Shown here in pieces: positions 7,649 through 49,434 of a stretch of DNA of 64,000 bases. Under the pieces are notes generated by a model. The model did not search any database. It saw only the letters and a program-made list of their open reading frames with translations, and was not told the DNA's origin. Source of the DNA: an uncultured Bifidobacteriaceae bacterium (GTDB lineage Bacteria > Actinomycetota > Acidimicrobiia > IMCC26256 > PALSA-555); contig CAZKTS010000288.1 in assembly GCA_964555735.1 (NCBI GenBank), positions 1,069 through 65,068 of the forward strand, given 5' to 3'. A program made the translations under genes and the position numbers. Every line of letters begins with the position of its first letter. Position 1 is the first letter of the stretch.

Positions 7649-7657
7649 TCGCGGCGT

Positions 7658-18362: not shown

Positions 18363-18480
18363 GGCGCCTAATCGCCGCCCTACGGCGCCCGGAGCCGCCA
18401 GGGCACCCTAGCCCCCATCCGGGGCCGCCGGACGCGCCCACGGGGCGATTAGGCGCCCTGGCGGGTTGCGCGGCGGTGGT
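18362..18480 (+). repeat. composite intergenic repeat, copy A
   Basis: Contains GGCGCCTAATCGCC (18363-18376) and its exact inverse GGCGATTAGGCGCC (18444-18457), the 17-mer GGGCACCCTAGCCCCCA (18401-18417) and a CCCTACGGCGCC variant of the core. Confidence 0.75.
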
Positions 18481-18489
18481 CGGCGCAGA

Positions 18490-24744: not shown

Positions 24745-24868
24745 GCGCCTCGCTGCCGCGCCTTTGGGCCCCGGGCACCCTAGCCCCCACGGGGCGCCCA
24801 AAAGCGCGCCTACGGGGCGCCCACGCGGGCTCCCGGGGTGCTCCGGGGCCGTGGGGTCACTGGGGCCC
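24745..24868 (+). repeat. composite intergenic repeat, copy B
   Basis: Contains the identical 17-mer GGGCACCCTAGCCCCCA (24773-24789), AAAGCGCGCCTACGGGG (24801-24817), and ACGGGGCGCCCA twice (24789-24800 and 24812-24823). Confidence 0.75.
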
Positions 24869-33630: not shown

Positions 33631-36351
33631 ATGTTGCTCGCGCTGCTGAATCAGGTTTCGATTTCGGGCACGACGCTCACGCCTGGCAGCGTGATCGATG
33701 ACGTCGCCGACCCGCAGCTTGCGGGGGCGGTGCTCGAAGCGGGCGGCATCCTGGTCAACCTGGGGACGCTCCAAGGGGCTCGCGCGGCGGACCTCGCGCA
33801 GCGCTTCGCGCGGCGTGGCGACACGACCGGCGCGGCGATCGCGGGCATCGGCGCGATGCTCGGCGCAGGAGGAGGCGGTGGCGGCGGTGGCGCGTGCGCG
33901 TCGACGTACTCGGTCCCGAGCGATGACTACCCGACGATCGAGGCGGCGCTGGCTGCGGCCAACGGCGCGGCCGGGCCTGCGCAGCCGATCACGGTGATGG
34001 TGTGCCCGGGGACGTACGTGGTGACGTCGACGCTCGACATCACGAACCCCTACGTGGACGTCACGGCTGAGAGCGAGGTCAGCGCGTTCGTGCTCGCGGC
34101 GCCGGGCGTCTCGCCGCTACTGCGCGTGAGTGCGCCGCCCGCGCTCGATGCGGTGCGCGTGCGCGGGCTCGTGCTGATGCGCTCGGATGCGGGCGTGATG
34201 CTCGACCTGACATCGCAGCAGAGCGTCTTCGTGGCCGACTGCGTGTTTCTGCGCACGGCGGCGTCTCCGGGCATCGTCTGCGTGCAGCAGTCGGCGTCGA
34301 CGTTCACGGTCCTGGAGCGGTGCTTCGTGGGGATCGATAGCGGCGGCCTGCCGTCGGGCTCGGCGTTCGTGGTGACGGATGGCCAGCTGACGCTGTCGGA
34401 CTGTCAGATCCAGGACGCGCTCGGATCGAGCGTGACGGGGCCCGGGTCGGCCGTGACGCTGAGCCGGTGCCTGATGCAGTCGGCGGCGACGGCGCAGGCG
34501 CTGCTGGTCACGGGCGGCGCGCGCTTGGACGCGAAGAGCCTGCAGCTGTTCGCGCCGAGTGCGGCGGCCGGCGTGGTGCTGAACGGCGCAGCGACGGGCG
34601 ACCTGGAGAGCTGCTCGATCAACGGCGACGCGCCCGCCGCTGCTGGTGTGCGCGCGCTGGGCTCGGCGTCCGTGCGCGTGCGCCTGAGCCAGATCCGGGC
34701 TGACGTCGGTGTCTACGGGGGCGGCGCGGTCGTGGAGCTGGAGTCGGTGCAGTACGCGACGACGACGGCGCTGCCTGGCGTGATGCTGACGGCCTCGGCG
34801 GGCGTGGCGCGTGCGCTGAATTGTGTCTGCTACCCGCCGCACATCCCGCTGGTGCAGTCAGCGGGTGTACCGTGCGCGATGCTCTGGGGCGAGCTGGCGA
34901 TGCAGAATGCGCTGATCGCGACGCCGCTGGATGTGCGCTGGGTCACGAGCGCGACGGCGGAGCTGGAGGTGCAGCACCTCAACGGGTCGTGGGCGAGCTT
35001 CGCGATCCGGTCGCCATACACGCCGACAAGCCCGAGCGACCCCAACGGGGCCGTGGGTGCGATCAATTGGGGCGACTCGACCACCCATCCGCCGCTGCTG
35101 AGCGTGCGATCGAGCACTGGCTGGGCCAGCGTGCCGATGGGCGGGGTAGCTGACCTCGCGAGCGTGACGGCGCTACCGGGGGCGTTGCGCCCTGGCGCCT
35201 CGGTGTGGTGCGCGGAGGTGCGCGCGTCATTCGTGCTGACTGACTTTGCGGCACCGCTCGCGGTCAACGGGGTCACGGTGCTGGCGACGGCGCTGGGCGG
35301 CAATACGCGCTGGGAGCGCGTGCAGGGTGGGCCGCAGTCGGATCTGGCGCTGTACGGCGACGGGCGAGACGGTGTCGCCACGATCAGCGCGCCGGTCACG
35401 CTGACGCGCGACATGTTCTACGCCGATCTGACCCTGACCCCGGGTGCCGCCATCACGACGGCGGGATTCGCGATCTACGTGGCCGGGGTGCTGGACCTCA
35501 GCACCGCCCCAGCCGGGGCGATCGCGCGCAGTGGCGCCAACGGCGCCAACGGCGCCACGGTGGGCACCGGAGGCGGCGCAGGCGCGGCTTTGGCCGCGGT
35601 GGCCACGGGGGGCTCTGGCGCGGGCACCGCGGGCGGTGCGGGCGGCGTAGCGGCCGGCGTGCAGGCTACGGCGCCGACGGCGCAGAACCCGGGCAACGGC
35701 GGCGTCGGCGGGCTCGGCGCGGCCGGCGGCTCGGGCTCGGGTGGCGCCGGCGGCGCGGCCCGCGCTGGCGCGGCGGTCACTGCGTACCCGCGGGGCGTGC
35801 TGACCACGCAGCTCACGCGAGGCGCGGCGATCATTCAGGGCGGCGCCGGCGGTGCCGGCGGTGGTGGCGGCGGCGGCGATGCGACCTCGGGCGGCGGCGG
35901 TGGCGGTGGTGCGAGCGGCGGCGGCGTGGTGCTGGTGTGCGCGCGCACGATCCAGAGAGGCGGCGGCACGGCGGCGGGTGCGATCCGGGCGCTGGGTGGC
36001 ACCGCAGGCAACGGCGGCTCGGCGACGGCGGGCAATCGCGGCGGCGGCGGTGGTGGTGGTGGTGGCGGCGGTGGGTGGGTGATGGTGATCTATGATCAGC
36101 TCATCGGTGCGGCCGCGCCGAATGCGGTGGCGTGCAACGGCGGCAACGGCGGCACGGGCGGCAACGGCTTCGGCACTGGTATCGGCGGCACGGGCGGCAC
36201 GGGCGGCGCCGGTGGGCGCGTGACGCTCATGTCGCCGCTGGTGGGCACGATCGCCGATTCGGTCGGTGGTGCTGGGTCGGCCGGCAGCGCGGGCGCTGGT
36301 ACGGTGGGCGGCGCGGGTGGTGGCGGTGCAGCCTTCGCGGTGACGCTATGA
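33631..36351 (+). CDS. tail spike/fibre B (906 aa): shared N-terminal module, beta-helix-like middle, extreme glycine-rich C-terminal region
   Basis: The N-terminus is paralogous to 29565. Residues ~100-400 show ~25-30 aa periodic V/L/C repeats like a parallel beta-helix. The last ~270 aa carry poly-Gly runs (G7, G7, G12) separated by short segments. Confidence 0.7.
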   Translation: MLLALLNQVSISGTTLTPGSVIDDVADPQLAGAVLEAGGILVNLGTLQGARAADLAQRFARRGDTTGAAIAGIGAMLGAGGGGGGGGACASTYSVPSDDYPTIEAALAAANGAAGPAQPITVMVCPGTYVVTSTLDITNPYVDVTAESEVSAFVLAAPGVSPLLRVSAPPALDAVRVRGLVLMRSDAGVMLDLTSQQSVFVADCVFLRTAASPGIVCVQQSASTFTVLERCFVGIDSGGLPSGSAFVVTDGQLTLSDCQIQDALGSSVTGPGSAVTLSRCLMQSAATAQALLVTGGARLDAKSLQLFAPSAAAGVVLNGAATGDLESCSINGDAPAAAGVRALGSASVRVRLSQIRADVGVYGGGAVVELESVQYATTTALPGVMLTASAGVARALNCVCYPPHIPLVQSAGVPCAMLWGELAMQNALIATPLDVRWVTSATAELEVQHLNGSWASFAIRSPYTPTSPSDPNGAVGAINWGDSTTHPPLLSVRSSTGWASVPMGGVADLASVTALPGALRPGASVWCAEVRASFVLTDFAAPLAVNGVTVLATALGGNTRWERVQGGPQSDLALYGDGRDGVATISAPVTLTRDMFYADLTLTPGAAITTAGFAIYVAGVLDLSTAPAGAIARSGANGANGATVGTGGGAGAALAAVATGGSGAGTAGGAGGVAAGVQATAPTAQNPGNGGVGGLGAAGGSGSGGAGGAARAGAAVTAYPRGVLTTQLTRGAAIIQGGAGGAGGGGGGGDATSGGGGGGGASGGGVVLVCARTIQRGGGTAAGAIRALGGTAGNGGSATAGNRGGGGGGGGGGGGWVMVIYDQLIGAAAPNAVACNGGNGGTGGNGFGTGIGGTGGTGGAGGRVTLMSPLVGTIADSVGGAGSAGSAGAGTVGGAGGGGAAFAVTL

Positions 36352-36726: not shown

Positions 36727-36987
36727 ATGCGCGTCTCTCTGGTCGATGTGCTGGAGGCGGTGCGAGCGGAGTTCGCGCGCGGTCATCACCCGCGGGCGCT
36801 CGTGCGGCTGGGTGATGGGTGGATCGAGTGCTGGACGCTGACGGTGGCGCCTGAGCGGGCCGCCGGCCTGCGGCGTCACCTCGGGTCGCGCTGCCGGTGG
36901 CCGGCGGCGGGGATGCCCGAGGTGCCCGGGTACACGCCGATCGCGCTGATCCACGGCGATCTGCTGATTCTCGCCCGCCAACCTTGA
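36727..36987 (+). CDS. hypothetical protein (86 aa)
   Basis: ATG 36727 lies 7 nt after a GCGCTATTCG box. Confidence 0.45.
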   Translation: MRVSLVDVLEAVRAEFARGHHPRALVRLGDGWIECWTLTVAPERAAGLRRHLGSRCRWPAAGMPEVPGYTPIALIHGDLLILARQP

Positions 36988-37012
36988 CAGCCCTATGCAC
37001 CGGGCATATACC
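36984..37012 (+). promoter_or_regulatory. canonical sigma70-type promoter TTGACA-N17-TATACC upstream of the UvrD-like helicase operon
   Basis: Perfect -35 TTGACA at 36984-36989, a 17-nt spacer, TATACC at 37007-37012, ~38 nt before ATG 37050. Confidence 0.6.
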
Positions 37013-37049
37013 TGGGGCGCGGCTGAGATGGCGGCCGCGGAGGCACCCC

Positions 37050-38561
37050 ATGATCAACACGTTCCTGGCTCACAGTGATTCGGCGGATGAGGCGGCACCG
37101 GCGTCGGCGCCGGTGAAGGCGGCGCGCGAGTGGTCGCCATACCAGGCGGCTGTGTTCGCGGACGTCGAGAGCGGCGAGGGCAACACGATCGTCTCGGCGC
37201 GCGCCGGAAGCGGCAAGACGTCGACGATCGTGGAGGCGCTGCGCTACTTGCCGCCCGGCAGCAAGGCGCTGCTGGTCGCCTTCAACAAGAATATCGCGCA
37301 GGAGCTGTCCACGCGCGCGCCCAAGGGTGTCGACGTGATGACGCTGCACAGCTACGGGCTGCGCGCCGTCAAGGCGCGCAACCGCGCCGCGGAGATCGAC
37401 AGCGACAAGTCGCGCAACATCGCACGCGAGCTGTACGGCGATGATGCGAAGTTCTTCGGGGCGGCCTTGCCCAAGGCGGTCGGGCTCGCGAAGAACTTGC
37501 TCCTCTCGACGGCGGAGGAGATCGACGCGGTGCTCGACGGGTACGGGGTCGACATTCCGGGGCCGGCGACGGCGGCGGCGCGGGCGAAGTTCGTGGCCGC
37601 GGTGGTCGCGGTGGTCGAGGCGAGCAAGCGCGACCTCGACACGATCGACTTCGACGACATGATCTGGCTGCCGGTGGTCCTGCGCTTGCCGACGCCGCGA
37701 TACGCGCGGGTCTTTGTGGACGAAACGCAAGACCTCAACCCCTGCCAGATCGAGCTGGTGCTCGGGTCGGTGGCGACCGGCGGCCGCGTGACGGCGGTGG
37801 GCGATGACCGGCAGGCGATCTACGGCTTCCGCGGCGCCGACCGCAACGCGATGGAGCGCGTCCGCGCCGCACTCGGCGCGAAGGTGCTGCCGCTGTCCAT
37901 CACGTATCGCTGCGCGACGGCGATCGTGAAGGTGGCGCAGGCGATCGTGCCCGACCTGGAGGCGGCGCCGGGTGCGGCGGAGGGTAGCGTGGCAGAGCTG
38001 CCGTGGGCGCAGGCGTCGCAGCGGCTGGAGGCGGGCGACATGGTGATCTCGCGCACGAACGCGCCGCTGGTGCGGGAGCTGCTGCGCGCGGTGCGCGCGG
38101 GGCGCCGGGCGACGATGCTCGGGCGCGACTTCGGCCAGGCGTTGACCGGGCTGATTCGCAAGAGCAAGGCGGCGACGATCGCGCAGCTCGACGCCTACAT
38201 CGACCAGTGGGAGGCGCGCGAGGTGGCGCGGCTGGACGCGAAGGGGCGCGACACGGGCGCGGTGCGCGATCGCGCCGACACGCTGCGCGCGCTGGCCGAG
38301 GGGGCGACCTCGCCCGAGCAGGTGATCTCGACGATCGAGAGGTACTTCGCCGAGAACGCGGCGAAGGACGCGGTCGTGTTCTCCTCGACTCACAAGGCGA
38401 AGGGCTTGGAGGCGCACCGGGTGGTGCTCTTCGCCGACACGTACCGGCCGGGTCGCTCGGTCGAGGAGGATAACCTCTGGTATGTCGCGGTGACGCGCGC
38501 CAAGGTGGAGCTGGTGCTGGCGTACGGCGCCGGGCAGGACGACGAGCAGGGGGCGGCGTGA
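37050..38561 (+). CDS. UvrD/PcrA/Rep-family SF1 helicase (503 aa)
   Basis: Motifs ARAGSGKTST (I), VFVDETQDLNP (II), VGDDRQAIYGFRGA (III), ITYRC (IV), STHKAKGLEAHRVVLF (V), YVAVTRAKVELVL (VI). A canonical promoter lies upstream. Confidence 0.9.
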   Translation: MINTFLAHSDSADEAAPASAPVKAAREWSPYQAAVFADVESGEGNTIVSARAGSGKTSTIVEALRYLPPGSKALLVAFNKNIAQELSTRAPKGVDVMTLHSYGLRAVKARNRAAEIDSDKSRNIARELYGDDAKFFGAALPKAVGLAKNLLLSTAEEIDAVLDGYGVDIPGPATAAARAKFVAAVVAVVEASKRDLDTIDFDDMIWLPVVLRLPTPRYARVFVDETQDLNPCQIELVLGSVATGGRVTAVGDDRQAIYGFRGADRNAMERVRAALGAKVLPLSITYRCATAIVKVAQAIVPDLEAAPGAAEGSVAELPWAQASQRLEAGDMVISRTNAPLVRELLRAVRAGRRATMLGRDFGQALTGLIRKSKAATIAQLDAYIDQWEAREVARLDAKGRDTGAVRDRADTLRALAEGATSPEQVISTIERYFAENAAKDAVVFSSTHKAKGLEAHRVVLFADTYRPGRSVEEDNLWYVAVTRAKVELVLAYGAGQDDEQGAA

Positions 38562-39154
38562 TGCCGCCCCGGGTCCGCACTCGCAAGGGGTCGCATCCGG
38601 TCGGGGAGATGATCTGGTCGTACGGGTCGAATCTCTACACGCCGCAGGCGCTGAGCCGGTGCCCGAGCGCGGTGCGGGTGGGTCCGGCGGCGCTGCACGA
38701 CCACGCGATCGAGTTCGTCGGGTACTCGGCGGGCTGGGGCGGCGGGGTCGCGACGGTGATCCCGGCGCACGGGTCGCAGGTCGACGGCGAGCTGATGATC
38801 GTGCGGGAGAGCGATCTGGCGCGGCTCGATGCGTACGAGGGGGCGCCGGACGTCTACCAGCGGATCAAGGTGGAGGTGGTGGCGACCGCGACCGACGGCG
38901 CGCCGTACCGCGTGCCGTGCTGGACGTATCGGCACACTCGCGGGGTGAGTGCGCGGCGCGACCCGAGCGCGGCCTACATCGCGCGCATCGCGGCGGGATA
39001 CGGGCGACTCGGCTTCGATCTGACGCCGGTGATCGCGGCGATGGGCCGCGCGAATGCTGCGCGGTGGACACAGACTCAGCTGACGTGGGAGCGAGAGCAT
39101 GCGACAAATCGAGATCCGAATCCTGGCCCTGGACCCGGCCGCCGTAGTCGGTGA
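38558..39154 (+). CDS. gamma-glutamylcyclotransferase (GGCT/AIG2-like fold) with ~65-aa C-terminal extension
   Basis: WSYGSNL...RCPSA ... WGGGVATVIP ... VDGELM ... LARLDAYEG ... YQRIKVEV ... PCWTY is collinear with the human GGCT pattern (YGSNL, PSA, WHGGIATI, LDEQEG catalytic Glu). Start is GTG 38558, ATG 38561 or ATG 38609. Confidence 0.85.
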   Translation: MMPPRVRTRKGSHPVGEMIWSYGSNLYTPQALSRCPSAVRVGPAALHDHAIEFVGYSAGWGGGVATVIPAHGSQVDGELMIVRESDLARLDAYEGAPDVYQRIKVEVVATATDGAPYRVPCWTYRHTRGVSARRDPSAAYIARIAAGYGRLGFDLTPVIAAMGRANAARWTQTQLTWEREHATNRDPNPGPGPGRRSR

Positions 39155-39398
39155 GGTGCGCGAGCTGGCGCTAGTGCGCGGCTGGCAGTGGGGCGGCGCG
39201 CGAGACAATCCGATCGGCGCGACGGCGGGCACGGTGGCGCCGGAGACGGCCGACCAGATCCGTGCGCTGCGGGCGCAGGGGCTCTCGATCGGGGCCATCG
39301 TGGCGACGCTGAATGAGCAGGGCGTGACGGGCCCGCGCGGCGGGCGGTGGTGGCCGCGGACGGTACACCTCGCGCTGCGGCGGCTGGGGCTCTCGTGA
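39099..39398 (+). CDS. small DNA-binding protein resembling the 'Recombinase' wHTH domain of serine recombinases (no catalytic domain)
   Basis: IRALRAQGLSIGAIVATLNEQGVTGPRGGRWWPRTVHLALRR matches the i..l...G.s...Ia..Ln..g..t.rGg.W....V..il pattern. The alternative start is GTG 39156. Confidence 0.55.
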   Translation: MRQIEIRILALDPAAVVGEVRELALVRGWQWGGARDNPIGATAGTVAPETADQIRALRAQGLSIGAIVATLNEQGVTGPRGGRWWPRTVHLALRRLGLS

Positions 39399-40393
39399 CT
39401 CGCGTGGTGACGGGCGGCCCGGAGCTGCGCGCGGCGCTGCAATCGACCACGGCGGAGGCGCTGGCGCTCGAATCTGAGCCGATCGCTGAGGTGCAGCGGT
39501 GCGTGGCCGACGTCATGCGCCTGCTGGCCGACGTGCCAATCGCGCCCGAGGTGCCATCGGCGGCGGTCGTGCAAGCGGTCATCGACTGGCTGTGGGAGCG
39601 GCGGGTGGTCGTGCGCGCGCCGACGGGCGCGACGCTGGCGGCGGCGGCGATCGTGGCCGAGTCGCGGGACATCCAGCTGCGATGGCACTGGGGCGTCCGG
39701 TGGGTGGCGGCGGCGTATCCGACGGTCGACCTCGCCACGCCGCAGTTCGTCGCGGCGCTGCTGTGCTCGGGGCACGACCCCGAGCAGGAGCTGCGAGCGC
39801 CGTGGCCGGCGTTCCTGCTGCGCATACCGCCCGGGACGGGCCTGCCGGCTGAGCTGATCATGGTGGCGCGCGTGACCGACCCGGACGAAGGGCTGGCGAT
39901 CGTGGCGCTCGGCCGGAGCTATTCGTGGTGGCAGCGCGTGACGGTGGCGCAGCTGTGCGCGCCGGACTTCGCGCTCGACCAGCCCGACACGGCGACGGAG
40001 GTGCCGATGGATGCGGCCGACGTGCGGGTGCAGACCGCGCTGCGTGCGCTGGTGCGCAGCGTGCTCGCGTGGGTGGCCGACCCGGAGCGGGTGCAGGCGG
40101 CGCGTGTGGGGCCATCGAGCCCGAAGGCTGAGCGGGCGCGCGCGGCTGCGCGTCGTGGTCTTCCGCTCGATCGGTACGTGCTGACGGCTCCGATCCGAAT
40201 CGATGCGCGCCCGGTGGTAGCGGCGTACCTCGCCGGCGAGAGGGCGCGGCCTGGTGTGCGGTCGCTCGTGCGCGGGTTCTGGCGGCGGCAGGCGTGCGGT
40301 GCTGGGCGCGTGGATCGGGTGTGGCGGTGGATCGAGCCGCACTGGCGCGGCGGCGAAGACCTCCCGATCGCGGTGCGGGTGCATCGGCCGTGA
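39395..40393 (+). CDS. hypothetical protein (332 aa)
   Basis: GTGA overlap. High GC3. No motif recognised. Confidence 0.55.
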   Translation: MTRVVTGGPELRAALQSTTAEALALESEPIAEVQRCVADVMRLLADVPIAPEVPSAAVVQAVIDWLWERRVVVRAPTGATLAAAAIVAESRDIQLRWHWGVRWVAAAYPTVDLATPQFVAALLCSGHDPEQELRAPWPAFLLRIPPGTGLPAELIMVARVTDPDEGLAIVALGRSYSWWQRVTVAQLCAPDFALDQPDTATEVPMDAADVRVQTALRALVRSVLAWVADPERVQAARVGPSSPKAERARAAARRGLPLDRYVLTAPIRIDARPVVAAYLAGERARPGVRSLVRGFWRRQACGAGRVDRVWRWIEPHWRGGEDLPIAVRVHRP

Positions 40394-40566
40394 GGCGGGC
40401 GCGGCACCCGACGATCGAGCCGATGACGGTCCAGATCCGTACCCGGGCCGAGGTCGGCGACAACGACCGCACGGTCGAGCTGCTCACACGCCTGGCGAGG
40501 AGCCGAGGGTGGGAGCTGACCGTCACGCGGCGGCACCCGCGCCGGGCGCCCCGCCAGCCCGCCTAA
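40390..40566 (+). CDS. hypothetical small protein (58 aa)
   Basis: GTGA overlap (alternative start ATG 40423). High GC3. Last ORF before the non-coding region. Confidence 0.35.
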   Translation: MRRARHPTIEPMTVQIRTRAEVGDNDRTVELLTRLARSRGWELTVTRRHPRRAPRQPA

Positions 40567-40790
40567 TCGCCGCGCTGGCGCGCCTTCGAGTGGTCGCCCA
40601 CCCCTGACCCGCCCGCCCGGGCAAAGCGCGCCTACGGGGCTCCTACGGGCCCCGGGCGCCAATGGGCCTAATCGCCTCGCTGGCGCGTCGGGCGAGGCTG
40701 GGGCACCTAGCACCCGTCCGGCGCCCAAAAGCGCGCCTACGGGGCGCCTGTGCGGCCCGGCGGGCGGTCTTGGCCCTGGGGCGAGGGGAA
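40558..40790 (+). repeat. composite intergenic repeat, copy C (double)
   Basis: Contains CCTAATCGCC.CGCTGGCGCG twice (~40563 and ~40667), AAAGCGCGCCTACGGGG twice (40623-40639 and 40728-40744) and GGGCACCTAGCACCCG (40701-40716). Confidence 0.75.
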
Positions 40791-40793
40791 GTG

Positions 40794-40864
40794 CCGCCCG
40801 CGTACCCGTCGGTCGTGCGGTCGAGGGGATGGGCGCTCCGACATCGGGCCGGGTACGCGGGCGG
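40794..40864. repeat. 14-bp perfect inverted repeat (CCGCCCGCGTACCC / GGGTACGCGGGCGG), 43-nt spacer
   Basis: Arms at 40794-40807 and 40851-40864. Confidence 0.75.
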
Positions 40865-40947
40865 CGAGGTGCAGCCTACCACGGGCGGCCGCGCTCGATC
40901 GGGGTCGGGGCTTGGCCGGTCCTTGCCGGTCTTCGACAAGCCTCGGC

Positions 40948-40969
40948 GAGCGCATGTCCGCATGCGCTC
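40948..40969. repeat. 9-bp stem / 4-nt loop hairpin GAGCGCATG-tccg-CATGCGCTC
   Basis: Perfect palindrome arms. Confidence 0.75.
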
Positions 40970-41070
40970 GCGCGCGCCGCCCGGCGGGCGGCGCAATCGC
41001 GTCACGGCCGGCGCGGATCGGCCTACGGCCGATAAGCCTCTTCGATGATTCCCTGAGGAGAATCTCTGAC

Positions 41071-41128
41071 GCGCACGGGCGCGCTTGCGCGCACGTACGC
41101 ATGTACCCGCGTGGGCGCGCCCGTGCGC
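41071..41128. repeat. 14-bp perfect inverted repeat (GCGCACGGGCGCGC / GCGCGCCCGTGCGC), 30-nt spacer
   Basis: Arms at 41071-41084 and 41115-41128, followed by (CGCACA)n-like repeats. Confidence 0.75.
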
Positions 41129-41154
41129 ACACGCACACGCACGCGCGGGCGCGC

Positions 41155-41183
41155 GAGGCGGCGGCACCGGCGGCGCTCGGGGC
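41155..41183 (+). repeat. 29-bp perfect direct repeat, copy 1
   Basis: GAGGCGGCGGCACCGGCGGCGCTCGGGGC. Confidence 0.8.
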
Positions 41184-41190
41184 GGCCGCG

Positions 41191-41210
41191 GTGTCTACCC
41201 GAGTAGACAC
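41191..41210. repeat. 8-bp stem / 4-nt loop palindrome GTGTCTAC-ccga-GTAGACAC
   Basis: Perfect arms. Unusually A/T-containing for this DNA. Confidence 0.75.
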
Positions 41211-41344
41211 CGATCGGCGGGGCTGGGGGGAACTGGTGCAACGTGGCGGGATCGCGAGGCGAATCGGCATCGCCGCTCGACGCGCATGCACTAGCCTCGC
41301 GGTGTATGCGGTATGTGAGTGAGCCGAACTAGCGGCCCGCGCTA

Positions 41345-41373
41345 GAGGCGGCGGCACCGGCGGCGCTCGGGGC
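41345..41373 (+). repeat. 29-bp perfect direct repeat, copy 2
   Basis: Identical 29-mer 190 bp downstream of copy 1, and 34 nt before the class-E box at 41407. Confidence 0.8.
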
Positions 41374-41406
41374 TGGGGCTGAATTAGCGGGGCCGGCCGC
41401 AGTGGC

Positions 41407-41416
41407 GCGCTATTCG
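41407..41416 (+). promoter_or_regulatory. class-E box GCGCTATTCG, 7 nt before ATG 41424 (SF2 helicase)
   Basis: ggcGCGCTATTCGgggtgggATG. Confidence 0.5.
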
Positions 41417-41423
41417 GGGTGGG

Positions 41424-42890
41424 ATGGCTGTGCGGGTGCGTGCGACGCTGGAGCTAGCCCTGGCTGACGTGCCGGCGGAGCTGGTGGACGCGCTGCGCGC
41501 GGAGTTCACGGTCGCGAACCCGGTTCGCGCGAAGCTGGAGGCGATGGGGCGGCGCAACCGTGCGATGGCGTGGCGCGCGGCGAAGACGCCGGCTGAGCTG
41601 CGGTTCTGGCGCGAGGCGGGGGGTGTGCTGCATCTACCGCGGGGCGCGGTGTCGCGAGTGCGGCGGGTGGCGGAGGCGCACGGGGTGCGGCTGACGTGGC
41701 GCGATGAGCGGGAGGCGGGCGGGGACTTCTACGCGCGTGCGATCGCGCATCGCCCGGCGAGTCGCGAGGCGGATGGTGGGGCGCTGCGGTGGTATCAGAC
41801 CGAGGCGATTGCGCGGGCGATGGATCGGCAGTGCGGGATCATTCGCGCGCCGACGGGGTCGGGCAAGACGACGATCGCGCTGGGGCTGGTGGCGGCGGTT
41901 CGGGTGCCTACGCTGGTCGTGGTGTGGTCGGGCGCGCTATTCGACCAGTGGGTGCAGCGACTGCGCGATGAGTTGGGGCTGCGCGCCGATGAGATTGGGC
42001 GATACGGTGCGGGGCATGATCAGGTGCGGCCGGTGACGGTGGCGATGCAACAGAAGCTCTGGCGCGGCATGTCGCGGGACTTCGTCGCGCGGTGGGGGAT
42101 GGTGGTGATCGATGAGGTGCAGCGCGCGCCGGCGCGCACGTTCGCCGAGGTGGTGGGCCAGATCCCGGCGAAGTACCGGATCGGGATCAGCGCAGACGAG
42201 ACGCGACCCGATGGGCTGGAGGCGGTGACGTACGACGTGTTCGGGCCGCTGGTGTACGAGGTGTCGCGCGATGACTTGATCGCGGACGGCAGCGTGCGCG
42301 ACGTGGAGATCCGGGTGGTGCCGACGGAGTTTCGCGCGGACTGGTATCGCGATCAGCTAGCGCGGCGGCAGATCCCAGACATCAAGCGGTTGCTCGATGA
42401 GATGGAGGCGGACGACGCGCGCAACGAGCTAGTGGCCGAGGTGATGCAGGGCGAGGTGCGCGAGGGCCGGCAGGTGGCGATGGTGGCGTCGCGGGTCGCG
42501 ATCTGTCGGCGGGTAGATGCGGCGTTGGCGGCGCGGCGGGTGGGGTCGGGCGTGGCGGTGGGCGAGGACGGCGCTGCGGCGGGCGAGGCGATCGCGCGGT
42601 TGAAGTCGGGCGAGCTGCGCGCGTTGTGCGCGAGCATCCAGCTATTCGGAACGGGCGTGGACGTGCCGGCGTTGTCGCGCGGCGTGCTGGCGACTCCGAT
42701 CGGGTCGAATCGCCAGCTGTTCGGCCAGGTGCGCGGGCGGCTGTCGCGACCTGGTGAGCCGGCGGTGCTCTATGTGCTGTGGGATCGACACGTCTACAGC
42801 GCGAACATGCTGCGGCGGCTGGAGGCGTGGAATCGGCGCGTGTTGGTGCGCGTCGGTGGTGGCTGGGTCGATGCGAGTGAGGTGGAGTAA
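41424..42890 (+). CDS. SF2 DEAD/DEAH-box (DExH) helicase, type III restriction Res-like/XPB-like
   Basis: WYQTEAI (Q), RAPTGSGKTT (I), VIDEVQRAP (II), SADETR (III), GTGVDVP (V), QVRGRLSR (VI). Confidence 0.85.
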   Translation: MAVRVRATLELALADVPAELVDALRAEFTVANPVRAKLEAMGRRNRAMAWRAAKTPAELRFWREAGGVLHLPRGAVSRVRRVAEAHGVRLTWRDEREAGGDFYARAIAHRPASREADGGALRWYQTEAIARAMDRQCGIIRAPTGSGKTTIALGLVAAVRVPTLVVVWSGALFDQWVQRLRDELGLRADEIGRYGAGHDQVRPVTVAMQQKLWRGMSRDFVARWGMVVIDEVQRAPARTFAEVVGQIPAKYRIGISADETRPDGLEAVTYDVFGPLVYEVSRDDLIADGSVRDVEIRVVPTEFRADWYRDQLARRQIPDIKRLLDEMEADDARNELVAEVMQGEVREGRQVAMVASRVAICRRVDAALAARRVGSGVAVGEDGAAAGEAIARLKSGELRALCASIQLFGTGVDVPALSRGVLATPIGSNRQLFGQVRGRLSRPGEPAVLYVLWDRHVYSANMLRRLEAWNRRVLVRVGGGWVDASEVE

Positions 42891-43138
42891 TGGCGAAGGT
42901 CCGTGTGGTGGTGACGCGAGGTGAAGAGGTTTACGCGCCGGTGAGTTATCACTCTTTCCGAGTGGGGCCGCTCTCGGTGACGTTCGAGTGCGAGTCGGAC
43001 ATGGTCGGTCCGATGGCGGAGGAGTGGACGGAGGCGCTTCGCCGGCTGAGCGACACGGTCTATGCCGATGAGCTGCGGCTGCATCTGGAGCGGGTGAAGA
43101 CTGCAGCGGCGGCGGCGCGTGCGAGCCAGCGCGCATGA
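42890..43138 (+). CDS. hypothetical protein (82 aa)
   Basis: TAATG overlap with the helicase stop. High GC3. Confidence 0.5.
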   Translation: MAKVRVVVTRGEEVYAPVSYHSFRVGPLSVTFECESDMVGPMAEEWTEALRRLSDTVYADELRLHLERVKTAAAAARASQRA

Positions 43139-43626
43139 GTCGGCGGCTGAGGTACGCCGAGCACGAGGCGGCGGCGGCCAAGCTGGCGGCGATGGTGACG
43201 GCGCGGCCGGCGGCCAAGCGGCGCGTGATCACACGGGCGCGCGCGGCGCAGGACTTGGAGCGCGCGATCGAGGCTCGCGACTATGCGAGCCTGCGGCCGA
43301 CGCATCTGGTCGCGTTGTGGGCGCGGTGCCATGGGCAGGTGTACGGGGTCGCGCCGGCGGAGCTGGACGCGGCCTCGTGGCGAGGCGCGGCGTTTGCGGC
43401 GGCGCGGCTGGTCAGGGGTGAGTTCGGCGGGTCGATGGAGGCGGCGGTGGAGTTCCTGCGGTGGACGTGGCGGCGGGAGCAGTGGCGCGAGGACAAGGCG
43501 CGCGAGGAGCGCAACGCGCGGGTGGGGCGCATCGGCTGGCGGCTGCAGTTCGTGGCGCGTCACTTGCTGACGGACTATCGGCTCGACCGGGCGCGGCGCC
43601 GGTTGCCGATCGGGGCGAAGCCGTGA
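43135..43626 (+). CDS. hypothetical protein (163 aa)
   Basis: ATGA overlap. High GC3. Confidence 0.55.
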   Translation: MSRRLRYAEHEAAAAKLAAMVTARPAAKRRVITRARAAQDLERAIEARDYASLRPTHLVALWARCHGQVYGVAPAELDAASWRGAAFAAARLVRGEFGGSMEAAVEFLRWTWRREQWREDKAREERNARVGRIGWRLQFVARHLLTDYRLDRARRRLPIGAKP

Positions 43627-43817
43627 GTCGCAAGGACCGAGTGATGTTGGCGGCGTGGGTGTCACCCGAGGTGCGCGAGGTCGCGCGGGTGGAAGCCGCG
43701 GCGGCGTGTATGGAGTTCTCGCGGTGGGTCGAGTGGGCGGTGAGGCGCGCATTCGCTGAGGAGGTTTCGCGGCAGGTGTTGCGGGATGACGCGGAGAAGG
43801 ACGCGGCGGGTCGATGA
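43623..43817 (+). CDS. ribbon-helix-helix (CopG/Arc-like) protein (64 aa)
   Basis: GTGA overlap. KDRVMLAAWVSPEVREVARVEAAAACMEFSRWVEWAVRRAF shows a beta-alpha-alpha pattern. Confidence 0.55.
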   Translation: MSRKDRVMLAAWVSPEVREVARVEAAAACMEFSRWVEWAVRRAFAEEVSRQVLRDDAEKDAAGR

Positions 43818-43848
43818 CGTGCAAGGAGTGCCACGGGTGCCGACTGGT
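43744..43848 (+). repeat. direct repeat copy 1 (~105 bp) flanking the DUF2829 gene
   Basis: 62 nt (43744-43805) are identical to 44177-44238. The next ~43 nt differ at about 6 positions. Confidence 0.85.
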
Positions 43849-43894
43849 GACGTGCAAGTTCTCACAGACAGAGGAGAGGGTTAATCATGGCTGA
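43814..43894 (+). pseudogene. truncated 5' copy (26 codons) of the zinc-ribbon gene at 44247
   Basis: MTCKECHGCRLV then diverges, compared with MMCKECHGCRLVGWSG at 44247. It lies in copy 1 of the ~105-bp direct repeat. Confidence 0.5.
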
Positions 43895-44162
43895 TTTCTC
43901 ATGGGCGTTGGCGGAGCTGAGGGCAGGGCGGCTGGTAGCTCGGGAGGGGTGGAACGGGAAGGGCCAGTGGCTCGCGCTCCCGAGGGCGTATCCGCGCGGC
44001 ATTCCGATCGACAAGAACACGGCTGAGGCGACGGGGATCCCCGAGGGGACGGTCTGCAGGTTCTTGCCGTACATCATCGTGCGGACGGTCGATGGGGCTT
44101 TCGTGCCGTGGCAGGCGTCGCAGACGGACGTGATGGCTGAGGACTGGGCGGCGCCCCCATGA
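43887..44162 (+). CDS. DUF2829-family protein (Tad2-like candidate anti-Thoeris nucleotide sponge)
   Basis: FSWALAELRAGRLVAREGWNGKGQWL ... LPYIIVRTVDGAFVPWQASQTDVMAEDW matches the DUF2829 hallmarks (A...lk.Gk.v.R.gW.gkg ... pW..SqtDllAeDW). GGAGAGG RBS. GC is lower than in the neighbours. Confidence 0.85.
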   Translation: MADFSWALAELRAGRLVAREGWNGKGQWLALPRAYPRGIPIDKNTAEATGIPEGTVCRFLPYIIVRTVDGAFVPWQASQTDVMAEDWAAPP

Positions 44163-44176: not shown

Positions 44177-44281
44177 GGCGCGCATTCGCTGAGGAGGTTT
44201 CGCGGCAGGTGTTGCGGGATGACGCGGAGAAGGACGCGCGCGGCCGATGATGTGTAAGGAGTGCCACGGGTGCCGACTGGT
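44177..44281 (+). repeat. direct repeat copy 2 (~105 bp) flanking the DUF2829 gene
   Basis: Duplicate of the RHH gene's 3' end plus the zinc-ribbon gene's 5' end. Confidence 0.85.
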
Positions 44282-45046: not shown

Positions 45047-45279
45047 GCGTGACGCTGCGGACGTTGCGGGTAGAGCGCCCGGACTGGGCGTGGACGGCCG
45101 AGCGCGCGGGGATGGGGTGGCGATATGTTGGAGCACGCGGAGGGCGGCAGGTGGTGGTTTTCGCGTGTGCGCGGCTGATCGGCGAGGATGAGTTTGCGAC
45201 GGAGTGGCGTGTGGATGATGGAGCCATCTCGCGGTCTTATGTGTCGTGGTGGCTGGAGTGCGAGGCGCGGTCGGCATGA
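45043..45279 (+). CDS. hypothetical protein (78 aa)
   Basis: ATGA overlaps at both ends. Confidence 0.5.
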   Translation: MSVTLRTLRVERPDWAWTAERAGMGWRYVGARGGRQVVVFACARLIGEDEFATEWRVDDGAISRSYVSWWLECEARSA

Positions 45280-46748
45280 TGCGGCGGCGCGTGGGGTCTG
45301 GTGAGCGGGCGGCGCCTGCGGCGGTGCAGATCCCGCACGACGTCGTCAACGAGCAGGCGGTGCTGGTCGCGGCGTTGGCGGACGCCGATGTTCGGCGCAA
45401 GCTGACGCTGCAGATCAAGCCGGACGAGTTTGTGGTCCGCGAGCACGGTGTCTTGTGGATCGCGCTCGGCGAGGTGGCGAAGCGCCGGCTGGAGCCGGAC
45501 CTCGCGACGCTGCAGCAGCTGACGGGTGATGAGAAGTCGGCGCGGTATGCGATCGAGCTGGCGGGCGCGTTGGGTGCGCCGGCGAACCTTGACCATCATG
45601 TCACGGCGATGCGGTGGGATCGCGCGCGCGTTGAGGCGTCGACGGGGCCGCTGGCGCAGCTGATCGAGCTATTGCGCGACCCGCAGACGGAGCCGGCGCG
45701 GGTGCAATCGGTGGCTGGGCAGCTGGCGGAGGTGTTTCGGCGCGGTGCGGCGCATGAGCTACTGCGCGACCCGCAGGCGTTGTCGGCGGCGACACGGGCG
45801 GAGCGGGCGAGGCGCCGCGAGCGGGCGGTGTACCCGTACGGGATCGATGGGCTCGACTACACGGAGGACGGGGCGGTGCGAGTGATGCCCGGGTGTGCGC
45901 CGGGCAAGGTGACGGTGGTGACGGGCGTTCCGGGTTCGGGCAAGACCACGGTGGCGGCGCAGATGGCGCTAGGGCAGCTGCGTGCTGGGCGGACGGTGCT
46001 CTATGGCGCGTGGGAGATCGGGGCCGAGGCGGCGCTGGAGATGCTGGCGACGCTGTCGGTTGGGCAGTCGCGCTCGAAGGTTCTGGCGGCTGGGATCACG
46101 GCGGAGGAAGAGCGCGAGATCGAAGCCGAGGAGGAGCGGCTGCAGGCCGATCGCCGGCTGTATTTCGTGGGGCGCCCGAAGCGGGTGGTGGGGTCGCACA
46201 CGGCGCGCGGAGTGAGTGCGCACAACCTGCGAGCGTTGGAGGCGGTGCACGCGGCGATCGTGGAGACGGGTGCGGAGGTTTTCGTGGCCGACTTGTGGAA
46301 GCGCATGCTGACGGAGACGCGGCCCGAGGACGAAGAGGCGGCGTTCGAGGTGCAGCAGGACGTGTGTCAGCAGACGGGGTGCCACGGGCTGCTGCTGCAG
46401 CAACAGCGATTCAAGGACATCGAGTCGCGGCCCGACAAGCGGCCGACGCGCGAGGGGATCAAGGGATCGGGCACGTATGTCGAGGTCGCGGATGTGATCG
46501 TCGGCGTGCACCGCCCGGCGCTGTGGAAGAATATCGCGGACGACACGCTGGAGCTGATCTTGCTGAAGCAGCGATGGGGCGGGCGGGCGACGGCGATCGA
46601 GTTCGATTGGCACGGCGACACGGCGTCACTCGCGAACCCGCGCGAAGTACCGCTCGACGATGGCGTGCGAGGGCATGACGACGCGGACGACTTTCTGGCG
46701 CCGCGGGTGGGCAGCCCGAAGCGCGCGCGCAAGGGTGCGGGGCGGTAG
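45276..46748 (+). CDS. dnaB: DnaB-family replicative helicase
   Basis: The N-terminus PHDVVNEQAVLVAALAD is a DnaB_N-type pattern. Walker A is TGVPGSGKTT. RecA-like core (VFVADLW, LLLQQQRF, REGIKGSGTYVEVADVIVGVHRP). Confidence 0.85.
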   Translation: MMRRRVGSGERAAPAAVQIPHDVVNEQAVLVAALADADVRRKLTLQIKPDEFVVREHGVLWIALGEVAKRRLEPDLATLQQLTGDEKSARYAIELAGALGAPANLDHHVTAMRWDRARVEASTGPLAQLIELLRDPQTEPARVQSVAGQLAEVFRRGAAHELLRDPQALSAATRAERARRRERAVYPYGIDGLDYTEDGAVRVMPGCAPGKVTVVTGVPGSGKTTVAAQMALGQLRAGRTVLYGAWEIGAEAALEMLATLSVGQSRSKVLAAGITAEEEREIEAEEERLQADRRLYFVGRPKRVVGSHTARGVSAHNLRALEAVHAAIVETGAEVFVADLWKRMLTETRPEDEEAAFEVQQDVCQQTGCHGLLLQQQRFKDIESRPDKRPTREGIKGSGTYVEVADVIVGVHRPALWKNIADDTLELILLKQRWGGRATAIEFDWHGDTASLANPREVPLDDGVRGHDDADDFLAPRVGSPKRARKGAGR

Positions 46749-47674
46749 TGGTCGTCGATGTACCGCGGCTGTTGGAGGCGCTGGGCATCGCGCAGGGCAA
46801 GGCGCGCAACGCGCGCGAGGTGTGGTGCTTGTGTCCGGCGCACGTCGATCGGTCGCCGAGCTGGTCGATCGACCTGAAGGACGGCAAGCACTTCTGCTTT
46901 GCGTGCTCGTTCGGGGGCGGCCCGCTCGATCTGGTGATGCACGCGCGGAAGCTGACGCGCGGCGAGGCGGCGCAGTGGGTCCGCGATTCGGGCCTGGCGC
47001 TCGATTCGGCGACGCTGCCGGAGACGCGCGTGGTGTTGCGGGTGGGCTCGCTCGATCGGTTCGTGATGCCCGCCGAGGTGCAGATGGCCGAGCCGTGGCC
47101 GGCGGAGGCGCAGGCGTACGCTGAGCGGCGCGGCATCACCCGCGAGCAGATCGAGCGGTGGGGGATCGGGTACGCGGCGACGGGTCGCTTGGCCAAGCGG
47201 CTGGTGATCCCGATCGTCGATTGGCTGGGGCGGCTGTCGGGCTACACGGCGCGGACGTGGTCCACCTCGCCGGTGCGCTACTTGACCCCGAGCGAGGCTG
47301 AGCACCCGCGGCGGGAGGTGCTGTTCGGTGAGCGGCACTGGTTCGCGATCGGCGCGGAGGTCGTGGTGGTGACGGAGGGGGCGATCGATGCGTTGGCGGT
47401 CGAGCGCGCGTGTGAGGGGCGCTTCGCGGTGGCGGCGCTGAGCGGTGCGAGCAATTCGCGATCGAGGCTGGTGCAGGCGAAGCTGGCGCGATTTGGCTGC
47501 GTGGTGCTGGCGACCGATGTGGATTCGGCGGGAGACGCCGCGGCGGCCGGGTTGCGGGTGGCGCTCGCGCGGCACACTCACGTCGTCCGGCTGCGATACC
47601 CGGCGGGCGTTGACGCGGCTGGTATGGATCGGGCAGGCTTGGCAGAGTTGATCGTGGACGCGGTGAGCCGATGA
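46748..47674 (+). CDS. dnaG: DnaG-type DNA primase (CHC2 zinc finger + TOPRIM)
   Basis: CLCPAHVDRSPSWSIDLKDGKHFCFAC is a CHC2 finger. VVVTEGAIDALAV ... LATDVDSAGD is TOPRIM. Confidence 0.85.
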   Translation: MVVDVPRLLEALGIAQGKARNAREVWCLCPAHVDRSPSWSIDLKDGKHFCFACSFGGGPLDLVMHARKLTRGEAAQWVRDSGLALDSATLPETRVVLRVGSLDRFVMPAEVQMAEPWPAEAQAYAERRGITREQIERWGIGYAATGRLAKRLVIPIVDWLGRLSGYTARTWSTSPVRYLTPSEAEHPRREVLFGERHWFAIGAEVVVVTEGAIDALAVERACEGRFAVAALSGASNSRSRLVQAKLARFGCVVLATDVDSAGDAAAAGLRVALARHTHVVRLRYPAGVDAAGMDRAGLAELIVDAVSR

Positions 47675-48502: not shown

Positions 48503-48934
48503 ATGGAAAACACGCGGACGCTGCTGAAGGCGGCGCACAAGGAGCTGGCGGGGCTGATGGGTGGGCGCGCGCGCATGGCGCGGCGCGAGCGGCTGCGGGT
48601 GGCGCTGGAGGCGGGCGTCATGGTGCGGACGCGCAAGGGTGCCGAGGTGGCGATCGCGCTGTCGCCGATCGACAGCGTGATCCACGCGATCGAGCTGATC
48701 AAGCTCGGCGAGGCGGTGCCGGCCGCGGCGGTGCAGCGGCTGCGGGCGGCCTTCGGCGCGGCGCCCGGGCGGCCGCAGGTGGCCGAGGCCGTGCGGCGGG
48801 CGATGGACGGCGCGGGCGTCGCGGCGGCCGCGCGGGATGCGTTCCTGCAGGCGATCGATCTGGACGTGGAGACGGCCGAGTCTCCGCTGGCGGCGGGGCT
48901 GGACGCGGCGCGGCGCCGGCGGGGGCGCGCGTGA
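48503..48934 (+). CDS. hypothetical protein (143 aa)
   Basis: AAGGAG RBS at 48491-48496. A GCGCTATTAG box lies 40 nt upstream. Confidence 0.5.
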   Translation: MENTRTLLKAAHKELAGLMGGRARMARRERLRVALEAGVMVRTRKGAEVAIALSPIDSVIHAIELIKLGEAVPAAAVQRLRAAFGAAPGRPQVAEAVRRAMDGAGVAAAARDAFLQAIDLDVETAESPLAAGLDAARRRRGRA

Positions 48935-49434
48935 CCTCGTCGGAGGTCGCGCGGGTGGCGCGGGCGATTCACCGGGCCTGGCGGTTGCCGGCCGCGGTGG
49001 AGGTCGAGGACATCGAGCAGGAGCTGCGCCTGCAGTACGTGCTCGGCGGCCGCGCGTACGACGCGAGCCGCGGAGTGCCGCGGGAGGCGTTCTGCTGGTG
49101 GTACGCACGGCGGCAGGCCGAGCGGTGGTGTCACACGCAGCGCTCGGCGCTGCGGCGCTCGGGGCGCGCCCCGAGCCGGCTGCCGGTCCTGCTGGACGAC
49201 GCGATCGATCCCGGGGTCGAGCCGTGCGCCGAGCGGGTGGCCGAGCTGGCCAGCGCGGTGAGGCGGGCGCGCCGCCTCTGCCGCTCGGCGGTGGACGCCA
49301 GGGCGCTGGAGGCGCTGGAGGCGTCAGCGCTCGACACGTCGGCGGCGGTGGAGTCGCTGGCGGGCGAGCTGACGCGCCGCCAGGCTCGCGCGGCCATGGG
49401 GCGCGTGACGCGCGCGCTGAGGGCGGCCGCGTGA
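48931..49434 (+). CDS. ECF-like sigma factor candidate (regions 2 and 4)
   Basis: EDIEQELRLQYVLGGRAYD....PREAFCWWYARRQAERW is region-2-like (eDl.Qe..l.......yd.....f..Wl..ia.n). The C-terminus ..AVESLAGELTRRQARAAMGRVTRALRAAA is region-4-like. GTGA overlap. Confidence 0.5.
   Translation: MTSSEVARVARAIHRAWRLPAAVEVEDIEQELRLQYVLGGRAYDASRGVPREAFCWWYARRQAERWCHTQRSALRRSGRAPSRLPVLLDDAIDPGVEPCAERVAELASAVRRARRLCRSAVDARALEALEASALDTSAAVESLAGELTRRQARAAMGRVTRALRAAA

Follow-up and report, generated by a model that had tools for sequence, protein, structure and literature searches.

Promoter-early/stem-loop elements (PeSLs) are composite terminator/promoter cassettes of T4-like myoviruses (PMC2839356, PMC4122927). 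They are about 100 nt long, occupy many intergenic sites in a common orientation, and fall after one gene has ended and before the next begins. We describe here a repeat with a similar layout, element C, together with the gene-free spacer that it opens, at positions 40567-41423 of a 64,000-nt window (the whole stretch of contig CAZKTS010000288.1 that was analyzed). The window is a phage-like genome with 71% GC and all of its credible genes on the plus strand, and its source is an uncultured, high-GC, myovirus-like phage of an undescribed lineage. The spacer forms the junction between variable accessory genes and a conserved replication block, which begins with the gene for an SF2 (ResIII/DEAD) helicase (41424-42890, plus strand, ATG at 41424). 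The interpretation that we rank first, tentatively and at less than an even chance, is that the spacer is a compound terminator, promoter and leader region that has been enlarged by local duplications. A replication origin, possibly combined with these functions, ranks second, and is followed by mostly nonfunctional debris and then by a discrete noncoding RNA (ncRNA).

Element C spans the 5' edge of the spacer. The original prediction listed one copy of this repeat, and it is present, but as two tandem 105-nt copies on the plus strand. In the first (40552-40656), block A (GCCTAATCGCC) takes in the TAA stop of a small upstream open reading frame (ORF) and is joined by a block B that is degenerate (CCCACCCCTGACCC) and by block C (AAAGCGCGCCTACGGGGC). 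This copy also holds the window's only C-rich four-tract motif, which amounts to a minus-strand G-quadruplex motif. The second (40657-40761) has the same block A (GCCTAATCGCC) with GGGGCACCTAGCACCC as block B and AAAGCGCGCCTACGGGGCG as block C, and 29 nt of it are identical to the copy at 24793-24821. Element C copies make up a quarter of the spacer. A repeat comparison within the window locates other copies, also on the plus strand, at 8582 and 8639, 18363-18457, 24745-24849 and 52840-52944. Core copies thus number seven at five loci, all on the coding (plus) strand with none on the minus strand, and the heptamer CCTACGG, absent from the minus strand of the window, has 10 occurrences on its plus strand. 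The TAA stop codon of the upstream gene begins three of the copies (18360, 24742 and 40564), while those at 8.6 kb and 52.9 kb are located where the coding signal fades. At sites other than the spacer, the C box (AAAGCGCGCCTACGGGGC) lies about 20-106 nt ahead of the next start codon. Because element C is dispersed, strand oriented and intergenic, it is suggestive of transcription signals and not of an origin, and the four loci beyond the spacer at which it occurs cannot all be origins. Its placement from gene end to gene start, combined with its strand specificity, argues for a transcription-linked role of at least the 5' part of the spacer.

Judged by analogy of arrangement, the PeSL cassette is the closest described analogue of element C. 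The seven core copies at five loci on the plus strand are multicopy, intergenic and co-oriented as PeSLs are. Both kinds of element mark the edges of variable gene blocks, and both come from a myovirus whose genes for replication and recombination are T4-like. The likeness extends to tandem copies and to repeat-flanked accessory genes (here a Tad2-like gene between 105-nt repeats at 43744 and 44177). However, element C differs from PeSLs in having no sigma-70 early-promoter consensus, with no recognizable early sigma-70 promoter in 40300-41500, and no clear conserved stem-loop, and the two are unrelated in sequence. The 650 nt downstream of element C have no counterpart in PeSLs.

Two individual copies of element C have peculiarities of their own. 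The copy at 18363-18457 is bounded by a 14-16-bp terminal inverted repeat (GGCGCCTAATCGCC...GGCGATTAGGCGCC), the only long terminal stem among the copies, which makes it a 95-nt hairpin unit or a unit that resembles a miniature inverted-repeat transposable element. An 8-nt box discussed below, GATAGGCT, follows 30 nt further on. The copy at 52840-52944 overlaps the 3' end of the PolB ORF (its final ~45 codons, to 52981), a stretch with a waning codon-position GC signal. Read in the PolB frame, this end gives ...APTGLPGGQIGLFG..., and its QIGLF resembles a sliding-clamp-binding motif. Searches with the element C core (AAGCGCGCCTACGGGGC) in IMG/VR returned only four unrelated chance matches, and block A plus the 29-nt repeat found no match in JGI metagenomes.

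The spacer itself is genuinely gene-free. For ORFs in 40567-41423 on both strands, the GC content of third codon positions minus that of second positions (GC3-GC2) is -0.07 to +0.14, compared with about 0.3-0.45 in genes. An independent gene caller left 40394-41423 empty on identical public contigs, and ORFs in the spacer have no Pfam or PHROGs matches, so that all of these lines of evidence agree with the original prediction that no credible ORF exists here. The same prediction described the genome as otherwise gap-free, which is only roughly right, as smaller gaps of 100-340 nt are present elsewhere in the window. No other stretch without codon-position asymmetry is as long as 40567-41423, and the sole comparable one is inside the gene for a 906-aa glycine-rich protein. 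This ORF (33631-36351) encodes (GGN)n-type repeats and lacks codon-position GC asymmetry over ~800 nt (35431-36220), a segment that is probably coding even though it fails simple frame-plot gene finding.

The 5' boundary at 40567 was correctly placed, as it follows directly on the TAA (40566) of a small plus-strand ORF (40390-40566) that marks this edge. The ORF encodes 58 aa if it starts at the GTG at 40390, where start and upstream stop overlap as GTGA, and 47 aa if it starts at the ATG at 40423. It has a coding signal, with a GC3 of 0.93 in its own frame, although the automatic caller missed it on the public contigs. In tblastn comparisons with a 99-aa ORF (39099-39398; Pfam Recombinase/HTH_62) and with its 126-aa homologue in the related phage locus L013, the small ORF proves to be a truncated paralogue of the 99-aa protein, which is encoded two genes upstream, and retains only the N-terminal domain. 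We considered whether 40567-40665 is the decayed C-terminal half of this paralogue and rejected the idea, both because the similarity after the stop is too weak and because the same DNA follows an unrelated gene at 24745.

Comparison with relatives suggests that element C belongs to a wider pattern. There is no nucleotide match for 40000-44000 among 50,697 phage records, and a protein search with the helicase found no cultured phage in which it is >28% identical. An exact-protein look-up identified 10 public contigs that match the window at 100% identity and thus provide no microdiversity. The nearest uncultured relatives have helicases that are 45-55% identical, and across all relatives (34-55%) the distance is too great for nucleotide alignment. 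We therefore compared architecture with the helicase gene as the anchor, using loci from Logan, ENA and JGI, among which L012, L015 and L020-L022 reach back to the tail genes. In these longer loci, the gap comes after variable small genes, which themselves follow the tail genes, and before the conserved helicase-to-primase block. The genes that precede the gap differ in every relative. Among the 12 relatives examined, the gap reaches 140 nt or more in nine. Gap lengths are about 825 nt in L013, about 700 nt in L004, about 530-750 nt in L011, 607 nt in L022, 517 nt in L015, 331 nt in L021, 278 nt in L020 and 169 nt in L023. The relatives' range is 36-825 nt compared with 857 nt in the window, and no such gap precedes the helicase in L012, L002/L003 or L005. 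L001 was not scored, as its contig begins 136 nt before the helicase.

We considered whether the spacer conceals a putative conserved gene of ~205 aa that is called before the helicase in L012, L013 and L005. No tblastn similarity was found, and the 'gene' of L013 is a mis-called repeat array. A conserved small protein gene, which the original prediction had raised as an explanation that would overturn it, was found neither with Pfam and PHROGs nor with this tblastn search. The L013 locus (Logan SRR22184561, 7228-7857), called as a 209-aa gene, is noncoding DNA with a (GGRGATC)x17 array (7581-7694, 18 GATC sites), palindromes and an AT-rich stretch, and the call is likely an annotation artefact.

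A recurrent signal in these gaps is a 13-16-nt box of the form C7TAC7. It is found in the gaps of L013, L015 (twice), L020, L021 and L023, the last of which has one copy in the gap and another before the two preceding small genes. L004 and L011 carry the box in inverted form (G7TAG7), and in L013 the box and block C have opposite orientations. Within the clade there are about ten occurrences where <0.1 would be expected by a rough estimate, which is far above chance. The version in the window is degenerate (CACCCTAGCCCCC). In L015 (7879-7911) and L023 (913-945), AAAGCGCGCC comes 17 nt after the C7TAC7 box, exactly the arrangement of blocks B and C in the window, and this pair lies 67-90 nt upstream of a helicase start whose product is about 50% identical. 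L015 has the B-type box in tandem (7742 and 7879) with block C joined only to the second. Given that the block B and C boxes recur with the 17-nt spacing in L015 and L023, element C is the window's local form, degenerate and amplified, of an element that the clade conserves in the gap upstream of the helicase. The B/C pair at this spacing is a candidate phage-specific promoter.

Two extensions of the box beyond the clade or its usual context were tried and dropped. As a 15-mer, C7TAC6 has >120 matches in IMG/VR, which might have made it a pan-phage element with flanking microsatellites, but they lie on unrelated contigs (3/120 share any gene). These matches are often in low-complexity coding sequence, and we estimate that their number may reflect chance plus homopolymer bias. 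The idea that the inverted box of L004 and L011 faces a divergent gene also failed, as the upstream gene with the better support has plus-strand orientation.

Another short signal marks the 3' edge of the spacer. A pre-start box (GCTATTCGGGGTGGG, 41409-41423, plus strand) adjoins the helicase ATG at 41424 and is found again at 53004, before the gene that follows polB. Ahead of the helicase in L012, L020, L022 and L023 there is a similar arrangement of xTAxTx, a G-run and the start codon. The window also encodes a 167-aa sigma-like protein (48931-49434, plus strand) that is homologous to Sigma70_r2 proteins of the relatives. Although it has no Pfam match of its own, comparison with the Sigma70_r2-containing proteins of L015 and L022 gives E ~4e-21 to 4e-22, and these homologues occupy the equivalent position two genes ahead of PolB. 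The phage thus probably carries its own sigma-like factor. This factor, the boxes conserved before the helicase of relatives, the pre-ATG box and the tetraloop hairpins described below further argue for a role in transcription.

Short, asymmetric and strand-specific boxes are known to precede some start codons of Cluster K mycobacteriophages at a constant distance of a few nucleotides, where they are called start-associated sequences (SAS) and extended SAS (ESAS) and read 5'-GGGATAGGAGCCC (PMC3203893). The position of GCTATTCGGGGTGGG before the helicase is reminiscent of these boxes, as is that of GATAGGCT, which lies 6-7 nt before the starts of structural genes. The boxes of the window differ in that they are found at other loci and at the spacer's 3' edge and have no bearing on its bulk. 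Perfect copies of GATAGGCT occur on the plus strand only, at 9246, 12255, 18488, 24871, 29551 and 30480, and copies with one mismatch at 420, 8511, 16120 and 23091. The distance to the structural-gene start codon is 21 nt rather than 6-7 nt at 18488, and the replication half of the genome has no start-proximal copies. This box could serve leaderless late mRNAs as a TAnnnT -10 element, or it could be the counterpart of the Cluster K SAS. An imperfect copy, GATAAGCCT, is found in the spacer at 41031, where only a 3-codon ORF follows.

Between its two edges, the spacer is unusually rich in hairpins. It holds six perfect inverted repeats that are 9 bp or longer, compared with 1.24 +/- 1.15 expected from 500 dinucleotide shuffles (P~0.002) and a mean of 0.8 per 857 nt in the rest of the window, and they include the two longest of the window. 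HP1 (40793-40808/40850-40865) has a perfect 16-bp stem and a 41-nt loop that contains a nested hairpin, for a total of 73 nt. HP2 (40946-40956/40961-40971) combines an 11-bp stem with a TCCG tetraloop, and the 9-10-bp palindrome HP3 (40974-40994) comes directly after it. HP4 (41017-41033, plus strand) is a 7-bp hairpin, ATCGGCC-TAC-GGCCGAT, that runs into a patch of low GC content. HP5 (41071-41084/41115-41128, plus strand) has a perfect 14-bp stem that extends to 21 bp, and HP6 (41189-41198/41203-41212) a perfect 10-bp stem with a CCGA tetraloop and a folding z-score of -5.9. Of the four inverted repeats that had been reported, all exist and three are longer than claimed (16 rather than 14 bp, 11 rather than 9 bp and 10 rather than 8 bp), the 14-bp repeat at 41071/41115 can be extended as noted, and those at 40974-40994 and 41017-41033 are additional. 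HP2 and HP6 are compact tetraloop hairpins similar to one just after a gene end at 55051-55076. Together with HP3, they are candidate terminators that lack a U-tract.

At the RNA level, the hairpins invite comparison with phage T7, whose early mRNA contains RNase III processing hairpins with characteristic internal loops. HP5, with its 21 bp including G-U pairs, and HP1, with 16-17 bp plus nested pairs, have the right helix size and lie between genes as the T7 sites do on their long polycistronic transcript, but the palindromes of the spacer are perfect at the DNA level where the T7 sites have internal loops, and a role for RNase III here is a prediction. The three mismatches of HP5 are T-G, T-G and G-T, which gives an unbroken 21-bp helix on a plus-strand RNA and A-C mismatches on the minus strand. 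Relative to shuffled sequences, the whole spacer folds with z-scores of -4.5 on the plus strand and -2.7 on the minus strand. Together with the continuous HP5 helix and the z-score of HP6, these values could indicate a discrete, stable and structured ncRNA from the plus strand, for example from ~41045 to the end of HP6 at ~41212, that acts in trans or as a decoy, in line with the alternative offered by the original prediction. We consider this improbable. Its positive support comes from fold energy, whereas most of the structure stems from palindromes in the DNA, which can fold on either strand, and no consensus promoter or terminator flanks the region. In Rfam 15, no match in the whole window reaches the gathering threshold; at E <= 10 there are sub-threshold matches to miRNA, sRNA, snoRNA and IRES (internal ribosome entry site) families, all but one of them on the HP5 palindrome or its flanks, and the miRNA-like ones are put down to chance. 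Nor does the spacer have a sequence homologue, the closest relative being 55% identical at the level of the helicase protein.

A possible precedent is offered by L004 and L011, whose helicases are 38-39% identical to that of the window and whose ~700-nt gaps (5298-5997 and 5251-6000, respectively) are homologous to each other. Perfectly conserved blocks (among them G7TAG7, three CGCTCACCGG-type motifs and GGTGATAGACTC) alternate there with variable segments, and the hairpins of these segments are capped by UUCG and GAAA. This mosaic suggests a structured RNA or a protein-binding array, and the two sequences have no Rfam match. An attempt to enlarge the set with the block GCTCTGTCCGAAGGACAA yielded only a chance match. 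As a precedent for an ncRNA these gaps favor that reading, but the window shares with them only the degenerate G7TAG7/C7TAC7 box.

Duplications are evident in the spacer. In addition to the tandem element C copies, a 35-nt direct repeat with 94% identity occurs on the plus strand at 41149-41183 and, 190 nt downstream, at 41339-41373, and the pair flanks HP6. The perfect 29-bp core that had been noted, from 41155 and 41345, is borne out and exceeds the longest repeat in 200 shuffles (18 nt). The loop and right arm of HP1 (40809-40857) are an inverted, diverged copy of 40438-40478 in the small ORF. Such features are compatible with mostly nonfunctional debris, that is, a recombination-scarred junction of a hyperplastic accessory region with signals only at its edges. 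A truncated paralogue at the 5' edge with an inverted fragment of it inside HP1, the 105-nt and 35-nt duplications, an interior (40770-41400) without a counterpart elsewhere in the window or in relatives, a gap that ranges from 36 to 857 nt and preceding genes that change with each relative would all be expected. Nevertheless, the remaining genome is tightly packed, the residual codon periodicity expected of recent pseudogenes is absent, and perfect 14-16-bp palindromes would decay quickly without selection. Perfect inverted repeats are also enriched ~3-10-fold in the gaps of relatives, in all nine that were measured. Because this hairpin excess is conserved across the clade, we regard pure debris as unlikely.

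Gaps of this kind also recall replication origins, and a lytic origin was the function first proposed for this locus. The lambda origin combines iterons with an AT-rich region, and oriR of P1 has GATC heptamers. T4 origins are promoters. The spacer may resemble T4 oriF and oriG as a putatively promoter-proximal region upstream of replication or recombination genes, and it resembles the repeat-rich origins of lambda, P1 and the PLE satellite in being noncoding, with repeats and palindromes beside replication genes. In PLE, the repeat-rich noncoding region with its RepA_N iterons has been demonstrated experimentally to be the origin (PMC7145576). If the spacer is an origin, then a phage or host factor would bind its repeats or palindromes, supercoil-driven extrusion of cruciforms or Z-DNA or a persistent R-loop would open the duplex, and the adjacent helicase, DnaB-like helicase, primase and PolB would assemble. 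Such a function may coexist with that of a transcription boundary, and by analogy with T4-type origins, which are promoters, the spacer could possibly fire replication as well.

Several observations in the window are favorable to an origin. The spacer is directly upstream of the replication block, whose gene set is T4-like (PolB, DnaB-like helicase, DnaG-type primase, RecA-like and SbcC-like). It contains three kinds of non-B-DNA motif, namely the longest inverted repeats, the only minus-strand G-quadruplex motif and the two longest alternating purine-pyrimidine tracts of the window (41086-41106, 21 nt; 41122-41147, 26 nt). The second tract is the (CGCACA)n-like microrepeat reported earlier. 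Both are Z-DNA-prone, and similar tracts are present in the gaps of L013, L022 and L012; homology of the window's CG-rich tract with that of L022 was indistinguishable from shared composition.

The gaps of relatives have further origin-like traits, namely islands of high AT content and arrays of GATC or of a 7-mer. In L013, L021, L022 and L011, the 40-nt segment with the uniquely lowest GC content in the 11-17-kb locus falls within the gap, and in L015 and L004 the low-GC segments of the gap rank in the bottom 0.1% of windows. GATC clusters are found in the gaps of L013, where they form the (GGRGATC)x17 array, and of L015 and L021, where they reach ~3-5x the density of the locus. Nested palindromes of 65-73 nt are shared by the window, L013 and L022, and the C7TAC7/G7TAG7 box occurs clade-wide in either orientation. 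An orientation that varies is unexpected for a simple promoter and better fits a DNA-level site. This independence of orientation, along with the AT-rich islands, GATC arrays and palindromes of the relatives, keeps an origin under consideration.

In the spacer itself, the hallmarks of such origins are absent or weak. An iteron array is lacking, with no k-mer of 9 nt or longer present three or more times and just two copies each of the 35-nt repeat and 105-nt tandem. The spacer has at most a small AT-rich patch and, at 75% GC, it is GC-richer than the 71% of the genome. The low-GC patch (41031-41070, plus strand) is real, with about 47-50% GC over 40 nt, but it is not unique, as 47% places it among the 10 lowest loci of the window, and it is unremarkable at a scale of 80-100 nt. 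It contains GATAAGCCT (41031-41039), a mini-ORF of three codons that starts with ATG (41045-41056) and, at 41047-41064, a small hairpin with a bulge. GATC sites are scarce (4.7 versus 10.5 per kb). GC skew is positive on both sides of the spacer without a switch in polarity, climbing to 0.21-0.27 at 41200-41420. No initiator-type protein is recognized among the neighbors, which are the 332-aa protein, small helix-turn-helix proteins and the SF2 helicase, and the 82-aa and 163-aa products downstream have no assigned family. The original proposal of an origin therefore stands as regards noncoding character, the excess of repeats and hairpins, adjacency to helicase, primase and polymerase genes and the origin-like traits of relatives, but it loses ground on a small and nonunique melting patch, a two-copy repeat, the lack of a recognized initiator and the lack of a skew switch. 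Overall, we consider an origin a serious but less probable rival of the control boundary.

A more specific version of this idea draws on mitochondrial-type priming. CSB II (conserved sequence block II) consists of two G-runs split by an A. It stops transcription through a hybrid G-quadruplex and so creates a replication primer (PMC3488243, PMC4176368). Its likeness to the G7TAG7/C7TAC7 box is a resemblance only, as the box is degenerate in the window and varies in orientation among relatives. The spacer would then be a clade-wide, transcription-primed origin built from non-B-DNA elements without iterons or an AT-rich element. The G-quadruplex-capable box would stall transcription and hand over a primer, the cruciform-prone palindromes and Z-DNA-prone tracts would open the duplex via supercoiling, and the window would carry a degenerate and duplicated box within element C. 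We judge this very improbable.

A transcription-control boundary remains our first choice, and the terminator, promoter and leader activities assigned to it are ones that we infer. Transcripts of upstream genes would end or be processed at the tandem element C copies and the GC-rich hairpins. Transcription of the replication block would restart from phage-specific signals, either the B/C boxes of element C, the pre-ATG box or both. A restart at element C would produce a long and highly structured plus-strand leader, in which the helices of HP1 and HP5 (~20 bp) would suit RNase III-type processing or stabilization of the RNA. The 650-nt interior may accordingly serve as a structured leader or contain a series of hairpins for termination and processing. 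The 857-nt length of the spacer would result from the 105-nt tandem duplication, the 35-nt repeat 190 nt apart and the inverted fragment of the small ORF.

Several results weigh against a control boundary of this kind. Neither a sigma-70 consensus promoter nor, on either strand, a hairpin terminator with a U-tract is found in 40300-41500. Just one plus-strand TAnnnT occurs in the spacer, the -10-like TAGCCT at 41292-41297, which lies 126 nt before the helicase ATG and has a poor -35 element. The C box in the spacer is 679 nt from this ATG, much farther than at the other copies. The consensus fold of six element C copies has 11 weak pairs, seven of which are broken in one or two copies. Most of the hairpins, as perfect palindromes, fold alike on both strands, and local z-scores have no consistent strand preference. 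Finally, C7TAC7 is present in either orientation among relatives, and the genes flanking it in L004 and L011 are both on the plus strand.

The genes around the spacer follow a modular order. Structural genes (tail sheath, baseplate and fibers) fill the first 32 kb of the window. The accessory genes that come next encode a UvrD-like helicase (36897-38561), a GGACT protein (38558-39154), the 99-aa Recombinase-HTH protein and a 332-aa protein without a match in Pfam or the PDB. Downstream of the SF2 helicase, the replication block includes plus-strand genes for the DnaB-like helicase (45246-46748), DnaG-type primase (46748-47674) and PolB (50441-52981), with the RecA-like and SbcC-like proteins further on. 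No tRNA or tmRNA was found. The Tad2-like (Thoeris anti-defence 2) gene inside this block (43887-44162, Pfam E = 2.6e-22) is flanked by 105-nt direct repeats that are 94% identical (43744-43848 and 44177-44281). Its surroundings (43.6-45.2 kb) are lower in GC and weakly coding, and all public contigs of the phage break at 43773, within the first repeat. This locus looks like a repeat-bounded anti-defence cassette.

Long, repeat-rich intergenic regions with control or origin functions are commonplace before replication genes, and the present one is an undescribed instance, with no sequence relative in Rfam or among annotated phages. Its practical value is modest whichever reading holds, although it tells annotators not to call spurious ORFs in such gaps, as occurred in L013. 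If the spacer is an origin, then it would be one in a very GC-rich genome that dispenses with the usual iterons and AT-rich element. If it is instead a control boundary, then the spacer and element C would provide a first handle on the transcription programme of this uncultured lineage.

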